63,687 bases of DNA, from the IMG/VR virus record IMGVR_UViG_3300045988_102303; one strand, 5' to 3'. A model generated the notes under the pieces. It saw nothing but the letters and a program-made list of their open reading frames with translations. It was not told the DNA's origin and searched no databases. Shown here piece by piece: positions 14,905 to 62,756 of the stretch (the first letter of the stretch is position 1; the number at the start of each line of letters is the position of its first letter). The stretch comes from a virus. The position numbers were made by a program, and so were the translations under genes.

Positions 14905-15825
14905 TTATAATTCTATTCCTTCTCCGTACCATCTTTCTGTAACTTCTATATCACATTTCATTGGTATTTCGAATTTGTCATCTACTACATGCACCATTAT
15001 ATACTCTAATCTATCTCGTACTGCTTTTGCATTTTCTCTTGGGCATATTCCCAACACCTCATCGTGAACTGGGATTATTAATTTATACCCAAGTCTATTA
15101 AGTTCTGTATCATTAAATATTCTTATCATTGTAATTTTAGTCATATCAGCAGCACTTCCCTGGATTATACTATTTACACATTGTCTTTCAGCATCTTTAA
15201 TAAAGCCTCTATTATCTTTTATTGTATAACCTTCCTGTGCTGCTAATTCTTTTACATTTTGTTGCTGTTGTTTACCTCTAGCTTTATTTAATAATGTCCA
15301 GTACTTCTTATATATCTCATTAGGTACATAATCATCTTGAGGTAAGTCAGTATTACCAAATGCGAATGGGTCAAAATTATCACTATATGATTTTATACAC
15401 GGTTTTATTTCTATTGGAGGTAATTGCATATCTGATAATCTTCTTTTTCTACCCCAAGCAGTTTCAACAAATCCATAATCTCTTGCAAATGATTGAGCAA
15501 AGTCTACAAATTCTTTTACCTTTGAAAATTCAGTATAAAAATCATCAATTATTTTTTGGGCCTCTTGAGTTGATATTTTTAGCTGCTCTGCTATACTTGG
15601 TACACCTCTACCATACATAATCCCCAATAATACGGGCTTAACGCTTGTACGTCTTGCCTTACCTTCAGGATTAACAGAACCATCGGGTCTAAATTCCAAA
15701 CATTCTTCATATGGCATTTTGTATATTTTACTGGCGATTGTACCATAGAGGTCTTTTCCTTCTAAATATGCATTTATCATATGTTCATCACCACTCATAT
15801 GTGCTAGACAACGTGGCTCTTGCTG
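14905..15825 (-). CDS. polA: Family A DNA polymerase, exon 2 (begins QQEPRCLAHMSGDEHM)
   Basis: Frame stays open upstream of the track ATG to CAG CAA GAG CCA at 15825; carries the rest of motif A, motif B (KPVLLGIMYG) and motif C (VHDEV). Confidence 0.85.
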   Translation of the reverse strand, partial: QQEPRCLAHMSGDEHMINAYLEGKDLYGTIASKIYKMPYEECLEFRPDGSVNPEGKARRTSVKPVLLGIMYGRGVPSIAEQLKISTQEAQKIIDDFYTEFSKVKEFVDFAQSFARDYGFVETAWGRKRRLSDMQLPPIEIKPCIKSYSDNFDPFAFGNTDLPQDDYVPNEIYKKYWTLLNKARGKQQQQNVKELAAQEGYTIKDNRGFIKDAERQCVNSIIQGSAADMTKITMIRIFNDTELNRLGYKLIIPVHDEVLGICPRENAKAVRDRLEYIMVHVVDDKFEIPMKCDIEVTERWYGEGIEL

Positions 15826-16583
15826 CTTTCTGTTACGAGGTTCGCTACACCTCCTCCAGTTTCCTGGAGTGTCGGACTAGCTCTTCAGTATCGGTAATTA
15901 TCCGATAAACTGCTCGGCGTTTCGAAGTCGCTTGACTCCTACTCTACTAAGTTGACTTATATTATAAGTCCTGTTCGATAGTCTCTACACTCGGTACATA
16001 TCTCCATTTATAACCCCCTGCGGTTTTTCTTTTACCTCTACATACTTTGCTTATATTCTGTCTAGCAATTCCTGTCTTCTCTTCAGCATGTATAGGACTT
16101 TCAAATTTTTGGATTATATTTCCTTCCAAATCTAATTGGAATACAGGTTTACATTTAGTTCCTGGGTATATTTTAAATCGTTCTATTTGATTCTTAGAGT
16201 TGTCTACCCATTCTAAATTACTTACTTTATTATTTAATCTATCACCATCTATATGATGTACTATAGGGTAATTATTGGGATTTGGAATAAATGTCATAGC
16301 TACTAATCTATTTACTCTATACATCCCCCTTTTACATCCTCTAGATAGTTTAACCCTATAATATCCATCAGTAATATGCTTAGTAAGTAATTTACCTTCT
16401 TTGTTATATACATCACCATCTTTAGTAATGAAATAAAATGGATTTTCTATATTATCTATTATTAAGGGTTTCATATATTCACCTCCATTAATAGATATGT
16501 ACCTAGCTCGATATTGCCATGCCATTTATGGTTTAGGTTTCATCGAATTAACCGAGTTTTACTTCAGCCAGTCTTTTAGGTTA
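15826..16583 (-). mobile_element. Group I intron (758 nt) with HNH homing-endonuclease ORF, inserted in pol motif A
   Basis: P1: exon CUUCAGU pairs with intron GCUGAAG (intron nt 16-22) with U.G at the splice site; intron ends in G; GC-richer structured 3' part incl. CTCCAG-GAAA-CTGGAG; splicing restores GGDFS|QQEPR. Confidence 0.8.
15962..16474 (-). CDS. HNH homing endonuclease, I-HmuI-like (170 aa from the SD-preceded ATG)
   Basis: SD GGAGGTGAATAT-ATG at 16474; HHIDGDRLNNKVSNLEWVDNSKN (HNH) and C-terminal GIARQNISKVCRGKRKTAGGYKWRY HTH-like tail. Confidence 0.8.
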   Translation of the reverse strand: MKPLIIDNIENPFYFITKDGDVYNKEGKLLTKHITDGYYRVKLSRGCKRGMYRVNRLVAMTFIPNPNNYPIVHHIDGDRLNNKVSNLEWVDNSKNQIERFKIYPGTKCKPVFQLDLEGNIIQKFESPIHAEEKTGIARQNISKVCRGKRKTAGGYKWRYVPSVETIEQDL

Positions 16584-18038
16584 ACTGAAGTCGCCCCCTA
16601 CTATTACCATGCCATCACCCGCTATAAACATCTGTCTTATATCATGTCCTGCGTCTATTACAGTTCCATCACTTAATGTAGTTTTTTGAGATGGTATATT
16701 TTGTAAATTTGGGTCACTACTACTAAATCTACCTGTTTTTGCTCCATATTGATTAAAATTAGCATGAAGTCGGTTATCTCTTTTGGCAATATGACTTGGT
16801 ATGGCTTCTATATAAGTACTCAATAATTTGCTCATACTTCTATATTCCAATATGCTATCGACTAAAGGATGCTTAAAAGATTTTAATATAGCTTCACCTG
16901 TTCCTCTCGGTGATTTCCTATCTGGACTTTCAAACTCTAGCACATCATAAAATAATATAGCTAGTTGAGTTGGTGAACTTATATTAACCTTTCTTATCCC
17001 GTCTTTAAATAGTTTATTATAAGCACCTGGATTTTTTACCATTAATTTATCAAATTTATCATTTAATTTATCTATCTCCAAGTTAAATTTAGTCTCTGCT
17101 GCATCCATATGTTTTGTATATTGTTCTTTTAAACGATTAGCTAAATCTGTATCTATTTGTACCCCAGTACATTCCATTTCAAATACCACCTGAATTAGTG
17201 GCATCTCTATATTACGAAATACTTCTGCAACTCTCTCTAAGCCTTTTTCTTTACAATATTTTCCATTGATGTCTAAAAATTCATACTGGAATTGATATAA
17301 TTCATACGTCATTATTGGGTCAAATGATGCATACATATAAGCGACATCTGGAGGTACTTTGTTAAATTCTATACCTTTAAATAATGAGTTAAAAGATGCA
17401 ACTTTACTATCTTCATCTGCGTTATCTACATATTTCTTATATAATTGTTTCAATCCATGCGGCTCATTTTCATTTAATAAATAACCACCAATTAAAGTGT
17501 CCCAATATGGAATTATTTTAACTTTGAGCATCCACCATAATATGTGCATGTCAAATTTAGCATTATGAAGTATATATTTTACTTTAGACTTATTCATTCG
17601 TTCAAATTGCTCTTTCATGAAATCTACTGCTACATTTGTCTTCAATTCAATCCCAGTCATATAGCTTTCATGTCGTATTGGAATATATATCCCCTTCTGA
17701 CCTGGTGTGTATAAGCATACACCTGCTATTTTTCCATCTATTCTATCTAGTCCATTTGTTTCGGTATCAACTGCTATTATGCCATTTGCAATAGCGCAAT
17801 CTATATAGGATTTAATCCTATTATCATCATCTAATAATTCCAGTCTATCTAATTTATCTGCAAACACTTCTTGAGACATATCCTTCGCCAATTGCACTTT
17901 ACCACTAATGCTCTTAGGTACTATTTTTCCAACTTGTTTTTTACTGGATTTTTTATTTAACATTTCAAGTGCTTTCTTTTGGGCCTCTTGAGTTTTCCTT
18001 GCACTAACATTACAGAACATATCGCCTATTCGTCCCAT
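16584..18038 (-). CDS. polA: Family A DNA polymerase, exon 1 (3'-5' exonuclease + N-terminal polymerase part, ends GGDFS)
   Basis: Exo motifs IAVDTETNGL and YASFD; SSPTQLAILFYDVLEF; NLQNIP; ORF stops on a TAA that is the first triplet of the intron. Confidence 0.85.
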
Positions 18039-18274: not shown

Positions 18275-18943
18275 TTAAAATACATCACTTGGAGCAGTAG
18301 TTCTTGTTCCTCTAGTTGTATGCATAGGCTCAAAGTGTTGTTCTTGCATTTGATGTTGTTGTGCTGCATGTTGAGGTGTATAAGTTCCTGCTATCATTTG
18401 ATTCATTTCATCTATTGATGCTTTGATAATTAGGCTTCCTTCAAGTTCTTGCTTTTGTGGCAAGTCTTCAAGTTTTACATCATCTTTGCCCATTGGCATA
18501 AATTCATATTGAGTCTTTTGGTCGCCCTTTTTACCTCTTCTTATTACCTTAATTTTAACTCCTGATAAATTTCCAAATTCATTTAGATATGTTATTATCT
18601 TTGATACAAAACTTGAACCTCTCTCCCAAACTTGCACTGCTTCTGGATTATCTGATGCTACAAGTTGTAAGAATAATTTTTCTTTAGGTTTATTACCTGC
18701 TTTACATAATGGGCAATCATCTGGATGAGATTCTCCATTTTCATCTACTGAATTACAACTAACATATCTTTTCTTACCATCAATTTGTACTTCATGTACT
18801 AAGAAATAATCTATATCTGAGCCATCTGGTTGGTTGTATAAAAATCTAACCACTGCACTATCTCCATCATCTCTTAAACTGAAATATCCCCCATTTCCTG
18901 AACCTTGATATTTACCTGCATTTCCAATTCCTATTTTTGCCAT
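18275..18943 (-). CDS. T4 gp32-like single-stranded DNA-binding protein
   Basis: AVVRFLY (cf. gp32 AVIRFLP) and Zn site C-x9-H-x3-C-x2-C (CNSVDENGESHPDDCPLC), as I recall them in gp32; ends ...APSDVF. Confidence 0.7.
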   Translation of the reverse strand: MAKIGIGNAGKYQGSGNGGYFSLRDDGDSAVVRFLYNQPDGSDIDYFLVHEVQIDGKKRYVSCNSVDENGESHPDDCPLCKAGNKPKEKLFLQLVASDNPEAVQVWERGSSFVSKIITYLNEFGNLSGVKIKVIRRGKKGDQKTQYEFMPMGKDDVKLEDLPQKQELEGSLIIKASIDEMNQMIAGTYTPQHAAQQHQMQEQHFEPMHTTRGTRTTAPSDVF

Positions 18944-19023
18944 TTTGTGTTCCTCCTAGTTTTTAGTTTTTATAAGTTTTTAGGTTTGGGAGATATATTT
19001 TATAACCCTCTCCCTGTTGGGTT
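18944..19023 (-). promoter_or_regulatory. 5' leader of SSB gene: candidate H-type pseudoknot + A-rich repeat (translational operator)
   Basis: Minus strand AACCC-AACA-GGGAGA-GGGTT-ATAAAATATA-TCTCCC, then AAACCTAAAAACTTATAAAAACTAAAAACT-AGGAGG-N8-ATG. Confidence 0.5.
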
Positions 19024-19029
19024 ATGTTT

Positions 19030-19061
19030 ATTATATATTTTTATTACTAAAATTTGTTAAC
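19030..19061 (-). promoter_or_regulatory. Family-1 promoter for SSB
   Basis: Minus strand GTTAACAAATTTTAGTAATAAAAATATATAATAA (TTAACA-N17-TATATAAT). Confidence 0.65.
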
Positions 19062-19068
19062 TATATAT

Positions 19069-19143
19069 TTAATATAATGCATATATTATGCAACTTATTA
19101 CAAAAGTCATTAAGACTATTATAATCACATCAGGTGTAATCAT
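19069..19143 (-). CDS. Mini-ORF, hydrophobic peptide (24 aa, not in ORF track)
   Basis: SD AGCAGGAGGTGCTATA-ATG right after the nrdJ stop; MITPDVIIIVLMTFVISCIIYALY. Confidence 0.3.
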   Translation of the reverse strand: MITPDVIIIVLMTFVISCIIYALY

Positions 19144-20623: not shown

Positions 20624-20925
20624 CACTTTGTTATCCTAAAGGCTTTTTATCCTCTAGTTCTAGGGATTTCTCCCATCGTTAGATATTACCATCTCTAACT
20701 ACTAACGGTCAATTCCGCTCTAGGTCGGCATATATTTTCACCTCCCACAGGGTAGTGGTTCAAACGGTGTTAGGAACTCGTGGAGGGATTATTACTTTCA
20801 TTTTAACGTTCACCCTCTATGCTCTACAAACGATATTAGATATTATCGCTCTCGGTATTACCTTATCCATTTAGAACTTAGGCTTCACCGATACATCCTA
20901 ATTTTTTACTTGAGCCAAATTATTT
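20624..20925 (-). ncRNA. ORF-less group I intron (302 nt) in nrdJ
   Basis: Exon CUUGUGCU pairs with intron GGCUCAAG (nt 10-17; 7 of 8 pairs, U.G at splice site); last nt G; visibly GC-richer than flanks; no ORF; splicing restores NPCA|EEPLP. Confidence 0.75.
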
Positions 20926-23447: not shown

Positions 23448-23583
23448 AGAAAAAGACTCTAACATTTTAAGTTAGAGTCTTTTCACGGTTATTATTCATA
23501 AATATATTATAAGGAGAAAAGTGTGTAATGGGAATTACTTTCCTTACTTATATTATATATAATTTTATAAAATTTATGTTAAC
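23447..23583 (-). ncRNA. Short promoter-to-terminator unit (candidate sRNA, ~95 nt)
   Basis: Family-1 promoter 23552-23583, then ...CACTTTTCTCCTTATAAT... and terminator AAGACTCTAAC-N7-GTTAGAGTCTT + TTTTCTG (23447-23483); no minus-strand ORF. Confidence 0.45.
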
Positions 23584-23589
23584 TAATTT

Positions 23590-24888
23590 TTAGAAAACAT
23601 CTATAGGATTTGCCATACCCTTCGGAATATTGTTTTTATCATTCTTAAATGATAACTCGGTATCCTTCTGAGGCCCTTCTTCAGAAACAAATCTAAAAGT
23701 ACCTAAATCTATATCCCAACTATATATAAATTTTTTATTATTTTCTCCGTAACGATTCTTTGTCACTAATAATGACAGTCCTAATTTTGTTTGAACTAAG
23801 GAAATTACCCTGCTGCTATTTTGTCCTATTGCGTCAGCCTCACCAATATCTGCTAACTCTGGATTTTCAGGTTCTTCTGTATTAGTTTTATTACGGTTTG
23901 CTTGTGCATCTGCTAATACAGGAATTCCTAGTTCTTCTGAAATTCTAAATAGGTCCATTGTAATATTACTAAGTTGTAATCTCCTATTCTCGCCCCTTCT
24001 ATCATCATCCATCAGAGATAATTGGTCTATACCTACTATATCGGGTTTATATTTTTTACATAAGGCTTTTAACATACTTACTGTCATATATTTTCCGCCC
24101 AAATCTTTTGGTGTCACTACAATAAAAGGTTCTAATTCTTCGGCTCTTTTCTTTAGTGCATTTTCATAATTTTCAAATTCTAAATCTGAAATAGTACCTC
24201 TAGTTAGTTGTCGATTTGAGTAATTCATAGCTAATGTATCGTGTCTATACCCTACTTGCATTGCACTCATCTCACCAGAATATAATAACACTCTTTTTTG
24301 TTGAGTATGCGCTGCTGTTAAAAACTTTTGTAATAGCCAAGATTTACCTTGATTCACACGACCAACTATTGTTACAAGTTCCTCGCCTGGTAGCCACCCA
24401 CCAAGTATATCGTCTAATTCTTTTAATCCAGTTGATATACCTAAAATACCGTCTATACGCTTCTTAGAGGCGATATCGTCCAATTTTTTATTAACTATAT
24501 TATTTATATCTGTCCCCTGTGTTATGGAGTTACTAACAAGCAATTTTTCGCCCTTTGCTAGAATATTTCTAAGTCCTTCAAACGCATTTTGTTTTAGTAG
24601 CTCAACAGATTCATTGAATAGTTTTGCCGATTGTCTAAATACATAGTCCTCCCTTAAATTCTCTAATAAGTATTTGGGAGGTTCTAATACCTCAATTAAA
24701 TCAAAGTCAGTAAACGCTGCTAAAAAAGTAGCTTGGTCAGGAACTTTATCATATTTCTTATAATGGTCTAAAATATAATTCCATTCTTTTATATAATTTG
24801 GAAAAAAGTCCTCATTAATACCTTCCTCTAAATATGTTTCTATGTTATTTTCGGCTAATATATTATTAATACATTGTAATTCAATCAT
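23590..24888 (-). CDS. dnaB: DnaB-type replicative helicase
   Basis: Walker A GRVNQGKSW, DQLSLM, RNKT... RecA-like C-terminal domain; ends ...NPIDVF. Confidence 0.85.
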   Translation of the reverse strand: MIELQCINNILAENNIETYLEEGINEDFFPNYIKEWNYILDHYKKYDKVPDQATFLAAFTDFDLIEVLEPPKYLLENLREDYVFRQSAKLFNESVELLKQNAFEGLRNILAKGEKLLVSNSITQGTDINNIVNKKLDDIASKKRIDGILGISTGLKELDDILGGWLPGEELVTIVGRVNQGKSWLLQKFLTAAHTQQKRVLLYSGEMSAMQVGYRHDTLAMNYSNRQLTRGTISDLEFENYENALKKRAEELEPFIVVTPKDLGGKYMTVSMLKALCKKYKPDIVGIDQLSLMDDDRRGENRRLQLSNITMDLFRISEELGIPVLADAQANRNKTNTEEPENPELADIGEADAIGQNSSRVISLVQTKLGLSLLVTKNRYGENNKKFIYSWDIDLGTFRFVSEEGPQKDTELSFKNDKNNIPKGMANPIDVF

Positions 24889-25598
24889 ATTCTAACCCCC
24901 TTTGGTGTACGTTGAGGCGGATTATTGAATTCAACTATTGTTGAAGTTTCTAATATCCTACTTGCGAGTCTACCACCTACATTACCAACAAACTCATCAT
25001 CTATGACATTTGATGTAAATATATTACACTTATTAGAACTTATTCTACTATTTATAAGTGGAAATAATATTGAATGGTCATAATCACTCAACTTAGTGCA
25101 ACCTATATCGTCCCATATTACAATATCTACTTGTGATATTAATTCTTCTATTTGAAGTAATCTAACATTCTTTTGAGATATAGATGATTTTTTCTGCATT
25201 AAGAAATCATCTACATTTATAAATAAGCCTCTACATTTTGTACCATTGCCATTCCAAATTCTACTAAAATACGCACTCATTAATTTTATACTCCACGTAG
25301 TTTTGCCATTACCATAATATTTACTATAAAGAAATAAATTATGGCCCTGTGATACAAAATCTATTATATTTTCTTTTATATTAGCAAGATATTTATATTT
25401 ATCAATATCCACCCCAGCACTTAACTTTTGATTTTCTGGATATTGTAGTTGTTCTGGAATATTTGCCAAATTTACTAGATAATAATATTGACAATATAAT
25501 GGACATCCACAGTTACAAATATCTTTTTTATAATTATTGCAGCTGCTTTTAAACCAGCAGCCATCTTGTTTAAACTTAAATTCTTTTACATCATACAT
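24885..25598 (-). CDS. DnaI/DnaC-like helicase loader (AAA+) with N-terminal Cys cluster
   Basis: N-terminal CWFKSSCNNYKKDICNCGCPLYC (Zn-type), Walker A YGNGKTTW, Walker B IVIWDDIG. Confidence 0.6.
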   Translation of the reverse strand: MYDVKEFKFKQDGCWFKSSCNNYKKDICNCGCPLYCQYYYLVNLANIPEQLQYPENQKLSAGVDIDKYKYLANIKENIIDFVSQGHNLFLYSKYYGNGKTTWSIKLMSAYFSRIWNGNGTKCRGLFINVDDFLMQKKSSISQKNVRLLQIEELISQVDIVIWDDIGCTKLSDYDHSILFPLINSRISSNKCNIFTSNVIDDEFVGNVGGRLASRILETSTIVEFNNPPQRTPKGVRI

Positions 25599-25617
25599 TG
25601 TAAAACCTCCCTTTATA

Positions 25618-25650
25618 ATTTATATATAAAAAATAGCATAATTTGTTAAT
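25618..25650 (-). promoter_or_regulatory. Family-1-like promoter (ATTAACA-N17-TATATAAAT)
   Basis: Minus strand ATTAACAAATTATGCTATTTTTTATATATAAATT upstream of SD AAAGGGAGG of the loader gene. Confidence 0.6.
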
Positions 25651-25762
25651 AAAAAAAATAACCCTAAAGTGTTTACCAGACACTAAAGGGTTGAAAATAA
25701 TTTAGAAAATACTATTAATGAATTGTATGTATTATATACAATTAATATATATTAATGTTAAC
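25651..25762 (-). ncRNA. Short promoter-to-terminator unit (candidate ~80-nt RNA)
   Basis: Family-1 promoter (TTAACA 25756-25761, TATATAAT 25731-25738), then terminator AACCCTTTAGTG-N8-CACTTTAGGGTT + T8 (25651-25692); no ORF. Confidence 0.4.
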
Positions 25763-25774
25763 TATAAATGTATA

Positions 25775-26422
25775 TTACTTTCTATAAAGTTCTTTATTAA
25801 TTAATGGTCTTACAGGTTTTAGAGGTTGTAAATCTTTTAATATTTTATCTAATCCCCTTGAAGTAAAATGTATATCTTTATGTCTTACTATAAAGATATA
25901 TCTATAATCATAATTTGTTATTGCTCCGTTATATTCTACTACCCAATCATTATCAAATAAATATTGTTTTATATCTTTACGTCTTAAACCAGTAGCACTG
26001 CATACATCATTTATAGTATCACCTTTTATTTTATAATTTAATAATTTGGTTATTTTATGTTGGAGTTGTTCTAATTGTTGTGTAGTTGCTCCCTCATCTA
26101 TATAACCTCCAGTTTTTCTTATTTCTGGTAATACTTCATCCATAACCCATTCTTCAAATTTTTGTGCTGATGGTAATTTACTACTAAATATAAGTCTATA
26201 AACATCTCCTTCAGGTATTAAATTAATTTCAGTTCCATTAACTTTTAACCCGTTACATTTTGTAACGCCTTTACATTTTCTACTTAATACAGTTCTCCAA
26301 CTACCTTCAGCATATCCCAATGATTTTAATACATCATTAGCAACTACATATGGTTTACCTTCAATTTCTATTCCTCTCATTTCTCCAAATTCTTCATTAG
26401 TGAATAGTTGTAATTGTTTCAT
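25775..26422 (-). CDS. Bro-N domain protein (antirepressor-like)
   Basis: FTNEEFGEMRGIEIEGKPYVVANDVLKSLGY ... KFEEWVMDEVLPEIRKTGGY. Confidence 0.75.
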   Translation of the reverse strand: MKQLQLFTNEEFGEMRGIEIEGKPYVVANDVLKSLGYAEGSWRTVLSRKCKGVTKCNGLKVNGTEINLIPEGDVYRLIFSSKLPSAQKFEEWVMDEVLPEIRKTGGYIDEGATTQQLEQLQHKITKLLNYKIKGDTINDVCSATGLRRKDIKQYLFDNDWVVEYNGAITNYDYRYIFIVRHKDIHFTSRGLDKILKDLQPLKPVRPLINKELYRK

Positions 26423-26451
26423 TTTTATTCCTCCCTTTATTATTAATTTAA

Positions 26452-26486
26452 ATATTATATATTAATGTTGGTAATTTTTGTTAACC
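26452..26486 (-). promoter_or_regulatory. Family-1 promoter for Bro-N gene
   Basis: Minus strand GGTTAACAAAAATTACCAACATTAATATATAATATT (TTAACA-N17-TATATAAT). Confidence 0.65.
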
Positions 26487-26494
26487 TCAATTTA

Positions 26495-26576
26495 CACAAA
26501 ATAAAATCCCACCTGATATTTATCAAGTGGGTTAATAAAGGGGAGATTAAATGTGGATTTAAATTATTTATTTGTT
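26495..26576 (-). ncRNA. Candidate sRNA D (promoter 26579-26615)
   Basis: Transcript ...TTTAATCTCCCCTTTATTAA-CCCACTTGATAAATATCAGGTGGG-ATTTTATTTTG: single-stranded C-rich anti-SD motif, then intrinsic terminator; no ORF. Confidence 0.5.
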
Positions 26577-26633
26577 ATGTATATTATATATAATAATTTA
26601 ACTAAAATGTTAACTATTATCAGTAATTTAAAT

Positions 26634-26731
26634 AAAAAAATACTGAGTTGAAGGGGAAGTTTCAAACTCAGTATCCAAACCAAATAAAATAAATTCAAAA
26701 GGGGGACTTACTTTATAGATATAAAGTATTT
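26634..26731 (-). ncRNA. Candidate sRNA C (promoter 26734-26770)
   Basis: GTAAGTCCCCCTTTTGAA..., then terminator ATACTGAGTT-TGAAACTTCCCCTTC-AACTCAGTAT + T7; second C-rich motif sits in the terminator loop. Confidence 0.5.
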
Positions 26732-26770
26732 ACATATATTATATACTATAATACTATAAAAATGTTAACT

Positions 26771-26873
26771 AAAAATTAAAAAGTACCTAATAATAATTAG
26801 GTACTTAATGGAAGGGAGATGTTACAATGAAATAGTTAAATTGTATTGGGTAACTAAATAATAACTTTAATTA
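26771..26873 (-). ncRNA. Candidate sRNA B (promoter 26876-26912)
   Basis: ...CATTGTAACATCTCCCTTCCATT, then terminator AAGTACCTAAT-TATT-ATTAGGTACTT + TTTAATTTTT. Confidence 0.5.
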
Positions 26874-26912
26874 CTATATATTATATACTGATATTATAAT
26901 TTAGTGTTAACC

Positions 26913-27019
26913 ATAAATTACTAAAATTATAAATATTAGTTGAGGTGCGTTAGCACAATAACTCTCCCCAACATTTATTTTTTTTTAATTTTTATTTAAC
27001 TTGTTTATCTTGTTTAACT
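26913..27019 (-). ncRNA. Candidate short transcript A (promoter 27022-27058), no strong terminator
   Basis: A9 run, then GTTGGGG-AGAGTTATT-GTGC-TAAC-GCAC-CCTCAAC nested stem-loop; runs into the next promoter. Confidence 0.35.
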
Positions 27020-27066
27020 TTATATATTATATATTTTTTTGAAGTGTTAATGTTAACCTCAAAATA

Positions 27067-62686: not shown

Positions 62687-62710
62687 GAGTTCTATTTAGA
62701 GTTGGAACTC
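62687..62710 (-). promoter_or_regulatory. Leader stem-loop, variant copy d (GAGTTC-N12-GAACTC)
   Basis: Followed by AAATAAATATATAATTAGGGGTGA SD, the same layout as copies a-c. Confidence 0.4.
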
Positions 62711-62725
62711 ATTAGCAACTTATAT

Positions 62726-62756
62726 GTTATATATAATTTTTACTATTTATTGTTAA
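62726..62756 (-). promoter_or_regulatory. Family-1 promoter (ATTAACA-N17-TATATAAC)
   Basis: Minus strand ATTAACAATAAATAGTAAAAATTATATATAACAT. Confidence 0.6.

Follow-up and report, generated by a model that had tools for sequence, protein, structure and literature searches.

Can a phage far from the T4 group control the synthesis of its SSB by the type of RNA operator known from T4 gene 32, and, if so, was such an operator inherited or invented anew? The T4 operator is composed of a pseudoknot of ~28 nt and more than 40 nt of unstructured UUAAA repeats, both of which are needed for repression (PMC535899). The pseudoknot nucleates the cooperative binding of gp32 along the repeat RNA, including the RBS (PMC535899, PMC3014915), and how gp32 picks out its own mRNA is unclear (PMC535899). 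Processing of the T4 gene 32 mRNA, the most stable of the T4 messages, takes place at -71, beside the pseudoknot at -67; according to a 2010 review, translational autoregulation by a viral pseudoknot may be limited to T-even gene 32 (PMC3014915). In the literature that we searched, leaders of this type were described for T4-type phages only. The question is raised by the window analysed here (the whole stretch of phage DNA, 63,687 nt), in which an earlier note had pointed to a gp32-like SSB gene preceded by a candidate H-type pseudoknot and an unstructured A-rich repeat, and had proposed that the T4 arrangement was either conserved or re-invented.

Re-reading of the sequence showed the layout given in that note, from the promoter through the pseudoknot segments (loops of 4/0/10 nt), the three AAAAAC repeats and AGGAGG to the ATG, to be exact. 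The features are as follows.

19032..19060, minus strand: promoter TTAACA-N17-TATATA (-35 TTAACA at 19060-19055, -10 TATATA at 19037-19032)
19019..19024, minus strand: stem 1 5' arm UAACCC, partner of 19003-19008
19015..19018, minus strand: loop 1 AACA, variable among relatives in the core-only alignment A5
19009..19014, minus strand: stem 2 5' arm GGGAGA, partner of 18988-18993
19003..19008, minus strand: stem 1 3' arm GGGUUA, abutting stem 2 with a junction of 0 nt
18994..19002, minus strand: loop 3 UAAAAUAUA, A-rich, 9 nt
19003-18994, minus strand: segment ATAAAATATA, which is loop 3 when stem 1 is counted as 5 bp
18988..18993, minus strand: stem 2 3' arm UCUCCC, which also resembles an anti-SD sequence
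18958..18987, minus strand: spacer AAACCTAAAAACTTATAAAAACTAAAAACT, 30 nt, G-free, unstructured
18981-18976, 18971-18966 and 18964-18959, minus strand: AAAAAC repeats in the spacer
18952..18957, minus strand: Shine-Dalgarno sequence (SD) AGGAGG, invariant in alignment A1
18275..18943, minus strand: SSB gene, 222 aa, gp32-like (ATG at 18943-18941)

The 5-bp core of stem 1 pairs AACCC (19023-19019) with GGGTT (19008-19004). The U19024-A19003 pair makes 6 bp, and the window phage has a further extending pair, A19025-U19002. The loops are accordingly 4/0/10 nt with the 5-bp stem and 4/0/9 nt with the 6-bp stem.

The family to which the earlier note assigned the promoter is real: TTAACA-N17-TATATA occurs in 13 perfect copies in the window, all on the minus strand, and 18 matches are found at up to one mismatch against 4.7 +/- 2.2 expected. 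The distance from the -10 box to the equivalent of AACCC is exactly 8 nt in all 14 promoter-bearing homologues. From the promoter family and this constant spacing we infer that SSB transcription starts near A19025, 0-2 nt 5' of stem 1, which places the stem at about +1/+2. The SSB leader is thus ~80 nt long, while the other gene-proximal promoters of the family drive unstructured leaders of ~20-30 nt; the long, capped, repeat-bearing leader is therefore specific to the SSB gene. One possible exception in the window is a second promoter-proximal H-type motif at 62687-62720 (minus strand), AGTTG-ctaat-GAGTTC-CAACT-ctaaata-GAACTC, located directly after a promoter at 62756 and upstream of an unknown 107-aa ORF. 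In close relatives this motif shows one change only, which keeps a U·G pair, and one diverged relative is without it. Six copies of the promoter, starting at 27056, 26910, 26768, 26613, 25761 and 23582, lie in the region 23480-27056 (minus strand) and are followed by no ORF; their units run for ~80-110 nt and end in a hairpin and a T-run, and several contain C-rich anti-SD-like motifs (UCUCCC, UCCCCC, CUCCCC). This region, in which neither an Rfam match nor a tRNA was found, looks like a tandem cluster of phage small RNAs.

The product of the gene is a remote homologue of gp32, as fold, pairwise alignment and profile comparison all indicate. It matches the SSB family PHROG 14578 (E 6e-60), while no Pfam-A family, that of gp32 included, was found at E <= 0.01, and a PDB sequence search with the SSB gave no match. 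The AlphaFold model (pLDDT 80.9) has T4 gp32 (8gme) and RB69 gp32 (2atq) as its top three Foldseek matches, with a probability of 1.0 and E-values of 1.8e-4 to 5.4e-3, and these are the only good fold matches in the PDB (TM 0.39-0.48). BLASTP aligns the protein with T4 gp32 at E 1e-4, with 28% identity across 143 aa, and a comparison of the family profile by hhalign yields E 7.7e-5. The motif AVVRFL falls on T4 AVIRFL, and H50/C63/C77/C80 align with the T4 zinc ligands H64/C77/C87/C90. The gp32-like nature of the SSB thus stands. The zinc site had been read as C-x9-H-x3-C-x2-C; these letters are present, but H73 varies within the family, and the residue that all 40 homologues share and that falls on T4 His64 is H50, so that the His chosen was, judging from the alignment, probably the wrong one. 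In the BLASTP alignment, residue 1 of the SSB corresponds to T4 residue 14, and residues 1-16 are predicted to be disordered. No counterpart of the T4 KRKST segment (LAST motif) is therefore evident, a difference from T4 that counts against autogenous control of the SSB. In T4 gp32, this N-terminal segment plays a role in cooperativity, and the SSB possibly has a different cooperativity interface.

The pseudoknot is not a chance pattern. Generic H-type motifs with 5 + 6 Watson-Crick pairs are common (17 in the window against 9.3 +/- 3.4 in shuffles), but the one in the SSB leader is the only H-type motif with at least 7 G-C pairs in the 63.7-kb window, where 300 dinucleotide shuffles give an expectation of 0.01; the G+C content of the window is 31%. 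The fold spans ~37 nt, with two coaxial 6-bp stems, a junction of 0 nt and the A-rich 9-nt loop 3. By nearest-neighbour stacking, stem 1 (6 bp) contributes -11.0 kcal/mol and stem 2 contributes -13.5 kcal/mol; scored as separate hairpins, the stems reach -6.1 and -9.3 kcal/mol, respectively. Ordinary nested MFE folding of the leader finds stem 2 only and gives an unremarkable z of -0.5, because nested folding cannot represent a pseudoknot.

Stronger evidence is provided by homologous leaders. A blastn search of the locus against 50,697 phage records gave no match, and a genome-contig search with the single SSB protein found no relatives. Relatives, mostly from the human gut, were obtained by protein-guided retrieval from IMG/VR, JGI/ENA and Logan assemblies. 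These relatives and the base composition suggest that the host is a low-G+C gut Firmicute. One contig, L126 (OGIG01006048.1), was left out of the leader analysis because its region 365-500 is probably an assembly chimera: the frame directly upstream of the SSB SD ends in a basic tail, ..KNKKASTKLIVRRRNGK, which we take to resemble the C-terminus of ribosomal protein L2. Alignment A5, restricted to the core, holds 16 distinct leader cores from gut metagenomes, on which the following structure was counted: ..((((((.....[[[[[[)))))).........]]]]]]. Examples of the stem variants are listed below.

Window: stem 1 AACCC/GGGTT, stem 2 GGGAGA/TCTCCC
L022: stem 1 as in the window, stem 2 GGGGGA/TCCTCC
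L121: stem 1 AACTC/GGGTT, stem 2 GGGGGA/TCCCCC
L025: stem 1 as in the window, stem 2 AGAGGA/TCCTCT
L016: stem 1 GACCG/CGGTC, stem 2 GGAGAG/CTCTCC
L129: stem 1 CGGTC arm only (contig truncated at its 5' end), stem 2 GGAGGG/CCCTCC
L030: stem 1 ACCCG/CGGGT, stem 2 AAGGGG/CCCCTT
L019: stem 1 AACCT/GGGTT, stem 2 AAGGGA/TCCCTT

In A5 (n=16), 98.3% of the cells over both stems are paired (100% in stem 1), compared with 48-60% in controls slid along the same alignment. Compensatory double changes occur in 9 of the 12 pairs (3/6 in stem 1 and 6/6 in stem 2). Column shuffles yield 3.2 +/- 1.1 such pairs, and none of 500 shuffles reaches 9. The stem 2 helix is recovered independently by RNAalifold. The leaders L030 and L128 precede near-identical SSBs and have different stem 1 sequences, which indicates that the fold, and not the sequence, is kept. 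The junction is 0 nt in all cores and loop 3 has a constant 9 nt with four invariant adenines, while loop 1 varies from 1 to 6 nt and in sequence. Covariation in homologous leaders, which the earlier note had proposed as a check on its H-type pseudoknot, therefore bears it out in both stems. To the level that comparative analysis can give, the pseudoknot is established as real and evolutionarily maintained, and the fixed geometry suggests that both helices form simultaneously. G·U cells are present in both stems, which argues for pairing in the sense RNA rather than in a palindrome of the DNA. We also considered, and rejected, an inverted-repeat operator at the DNA level, since the interleaved topology, the G·U pairs and the change of sequence with complementarity kept point to RNA.

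Another possible reading is a switch. In the folded pseudoknot, the stem 2 3' arm (UCUCCC/UCCUCC) would be sequestered and the SD would be free; if the pseudoknot were unfolded, or its 5' half occupied by a protein or an sRNA, the arm would pair with AGGAGG and block initiation. With the 5' half blocked, MFE folding does pair this arm with the SD in 7/7 variants, at -2.5 to -8.4 kcal/mol, and in L022 the pairing is a perfect 7-bp UCCUCCU/AGGAGGA helix. However, in the window the pairing is weak, at -2.5 kcal/mol, with more than 30 nt in the loop that it closes, and any pyrimidine tract can pair with an SD. Among the variants, the pairing differs greatly in register and strength, and, as the SD is invariant, covariation gives it no support. 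Such a switch is very improbable.

H-type pseudoknots with A-rich tails by the SD are typical of small riboswitches, among them the preQ1-I riboswitches of Firmicutes, whose small H-type fold has an A-rich 3' tail next to the SD. The SSB leader shares this small fold and the A-rich tail near the SD, and could by this token be an aptamer of the preQ1-I or SAM-II type. It could also be the site of another factor, such as a host or phage RNA-binding protein or the C-rich small RNAs of the phage itself: the UCUCCC/CUCCCC motifs of the promoter-terminator cluster could pair with the GGGAGA arm or the SD. Against these possibilities, the element is tied strictly to the SSB gene, and against a riboswitch, no Rfam match was found at E <= 10. 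The variation of loop 1 in length and sequence also leaves no conserved ligand pocket, and, unlike the case of preQ1-I, no covariance model matches, the loop nucleotides lack conservation and the window shows no link to a queuosine gene. We regard a ligand or another factor as improbable. The variable loop 1, the lack of an Rfam match and the weak, variable pairing with the SD thus led us to judge both the riboswitch and the anti-SD switch unlikely.

The second element that had been noted, an unstructured A-rich repeat tract running into the SD, is also borne out. Neither strand of the window has another cluster of three AAAAAC copies in 30 nt, against a background of 0.06 per 43 nt, and the repeat is absent from 55 of 60 gene leaders. 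From the spacer through the AUG, the window leader has an ensemble energy of -1.55 kcal/mol and a mean P(unpaired) of 0.83. Overall, the tract is G-poor and 30-45 nt long, with (U)AAAAAC(U) repeats up to the SD. Members of the pseudoknot clade have 0-2 G in the pre-SD spacer and 36-56 nt between pseudoknot and AUG; over this stretch, the ensemble energy is -0.5 to -3.2 kcal/mol and the mean unpaired probability 0.62-0.94. By the same measures, the T4 leader gives 39 nt, -2.1 kcal/mol and 0.66. The repeat extends beyond the clade. Among 81 representative leaders of the SSB family, AAAAC occurs at 0.86 per 44 nt against 0.11 in coding DNA (~8-fold), and 25% of them contain at least two copies. 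The SSB leader of Streptococcus phage Dp-1 (L012, 52682-52761), which is without the pseudoknot, packs four copies of AAAC[CT]T into 70 nt, more densely than anywhere else in the Dp-1 genome, and the MS1 SSB leader contains similar ACTTTAAAC repeats.

The pseudoknot itself is far more restricted. When 132 unique SSB-family leaders were scanned, G+C-rich H-type motifs appeared in the window lineage, L016 and L030 alone, and no false positive arose among the others; L019, L128 and L129 also have the pseudoknot, as read from the alignment. The pseudoknot-bearing SSBs form one clade in the NJ tree. The sister lineage and more distant relatives (L100, L102-L106, L031-L053, Dp-1, MS1, Flasso and phiCTP1) have short A-rich leaders from which it is absent, and P0010, P0011, P0013, P0014, P0026, P0028 and P0045 are likewise without it. 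In other lineages of the family (L054/L055, L085, L205-L207), simple and unrelated 5' hairpins, such as GTTCTGCAG..CTGCAGAAC and GTAGGC..GCCTAC, precede an A-rich tract, and the L205 leader also carries GTAACCAC repeats. The restriction to one clade and the absence in sister and distant lineages suggest that the pseudoknot was gained once in this group of phages. The leader shows no sequence similarity to the T4 operator. Together with the distribution, this favours re-invention, and of the two origins offered by the earlier note it is the re-invented one that agrees with the clade-limited occurrence, whereas a conserved T4 sequence was not found. The pseudoknot thus looks, from these sequence comparisons, re-invented rather than inherited. 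In the T4 group, too, it is present only in some lineages; RB49 has no gene 32 pseudoknot (PMC535899).

The architectural resemblance to T4 is nevertheless extensive. As in T4, T2 and RB69 gene 32, an H-type pseudoknot with abutting stems sits at the 5' edge of the leader. As in T4, the next ~40 nt, SD and AUG included, are unstructured and A(U)-rich with short repeats, the distance to the AUG is similar (39 nt in T4, 36-56 nt here), and the gene product is a zinc SSB of the gp32 fold. The pseudoknot also lies beside the mRNA 5' end in T4 and probably does so here, but this end is generated by RNase E processing at -71 in T4 and would come directly from the promoter here. Further differences concern the fold, which spans ~37 nt with 6 + 6 bp and loops of 1-6/0/9 nt, as against ~28 nt with 4-5 + 7 bp and loops of 1/0/5-7 nt in T4; the T4 helices are those presumed on the sequence of the T4 leader. 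Moreover, the repeats are AAAAAC(U) instead of UUAAA, the SD (AGGAGG) is strong, and the host is apparently a low-G+C gut Firmicute. Rfam matched neither the whole window (gathering threshold) nor the leader (E <= 10), and holds no family for the T4 operator itself. The T4 leader (L195, 2352-2410) has a sub-threshold match to RF03084, 'DUF2815 RNA' (18 bits against a gathering score of 41.2), whereas the window leader does not match it at E <= 10. RF03084 is likewise a candidate structured RNA, a curated one, named after a phage SSB family, but of a different protein family; DUF2815 is an Enc34-type SSB (PMC5686142).

Given that every architectural feature of the T4 operator is reproduced with unrelated sequence upstream of a homologous protein, an autogenous translational operator of the T4 kind, whose pseudoknot also caps the 5' end, is the function that we favour, at about even confidence. 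By analogy with T4, the SSB would bind and repress its own leader as follows. When ssDNA is abundant, the SSB would be titrated away and the open leader translated efficiently. As free SSB accumulates, it would load cooperatively onto the single-stranded repeat tract, its loading being nucleated at, or bounded by, the pseudoknot. The bound SSB would then cover the SD and the AUG and shut off its own translation. The 5'-terminal pseudoknot would probably also protect the long naked leader from 5'-end-dependent decay. Several observations weigh on the other side, besides the lack of an evident KRKST counterpart. Most of the SSB family is without the pseudoknot and some members have plain 5' hairpins, which a generic structural role fits equally well; an A-rich, G-poor leader with a strong SD also simply favours high translation; and an unrelated gene may have a pseudoknot-like motif of its own close to its promoter.

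These observations lead to the main rival, a pure 5' stabiliser or expression element with no feedback by the SSB, which we consider rather unlikely. In a Firmicute host, the pseudoknot would block 5'-end-dependent decay by denying access to an RNase J1-type 5' exonuclease or a pyrophosphohydrolase, and the A-rich, G-free tract, being unstructured, would let ribosomes land efficiently on the mRNA of a protein that is required in stoichiometric amounts. The constant 8 nt between the -10 box and stem 1, placing the fold at about +1/+2, fit such a role, as does the possible second 5' pseudoknot-like motif at 62720 on another gene. The unrelated simple 5' hairpins that precede the A-rich tract in L054/55, L085 and L205-L207 appear interchangeable, suggesting that any stable 5' structure will do. 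Bacillus 5' stem-loops and polypurine or SD-like stabilisers are established (aprE, SP82 and STAB-SD, as referenced in PMC3997798). The leader resembles the aprE 5' stem-loop, the SP82 polypurine element and the cryIIIA STAB-SD in having a stable or ribosome-binding element at the very 5' terminus of a Gram-positive or phage mRNA, and its purine-rich GGGAGAGGG recalls the SD-like stabilisers referenced in the same paper. In contrast to these hairpins or exposed SD-like tracts, however, its purine tract is paired in a covarying pseudoknot that is followed by a long repeat tract. A stabiliser also leaves unexplained the ~80-nt leader, compared with the ~20-30 nt from the family's other gene-proximal promoters, the recurrence of a specific short repeat in the SSB leaders of distant relatives, and the retention of a pseudoknot instead of a hairpin. 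Stabilisation and autoregulation do not exclude each other, as the T4 gene 32 mRNA combines both (PMC3014915).

Returning to the autogenous operator, we tentatively suggest, a little short of even confidence, that a pseudoknot-capped operator for a gp32-type SSB originated independently in human-gut Firmicute phages, with an interchangeable cap, either pseudoknot or hairpin, and the (A)nC tract as the shared site of SSB loading. If this is true, a structured 5' cap, a tract of single-stranded short repeats and the RBS would constitute a recurrent, convergent solution for sensing free SSB. The leader would be a second, sequence-unrelated example of viral autoregulation by a pseudoknot and would extend the mechanism to Gram-positive hosts with RNase J. 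The natural covariation, with at least seven stem variants of fixed geometry, represents a ready-made mutant series for asking whether shape alone nucleates SSB loading. Should the pseudoknot prove to be only a 5' stabiliser, it would still be a rare, pseudoknot-type 5' cap. The leader also defines a new structured RNA family that Rfam does not contain.

Three genes or ORFs near the SSB locus show further particularities. A 24-codon hydrophobic mini-ORF, MITPDVIIIVLMTFVISCIIYALY, with its own SD, lies at 19069-19143 (minus strand) between the stop of the ribonucleotide reductase gene and the SSB promoter, and one or two similar mini-ORFs occupy this position in the relatives L016 and L019. The ribonucleotide reductase gene itself is interrupted at NPCA|EEPLP by a G+C-richer, ORF-less insert of ~290 nt (20627-20919, minus strand); in relatives, the gene is either intact or carries an intein. 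The insert matches no Rfam model and is a candidate self-splicing intron. The gene for a family A DNA polymerase (14905-18038, minus strand) is split into two ORFs by a homing endonuclease ORF (15962-16525) of the HNH/NUMOD type, similar to I-HmuI.
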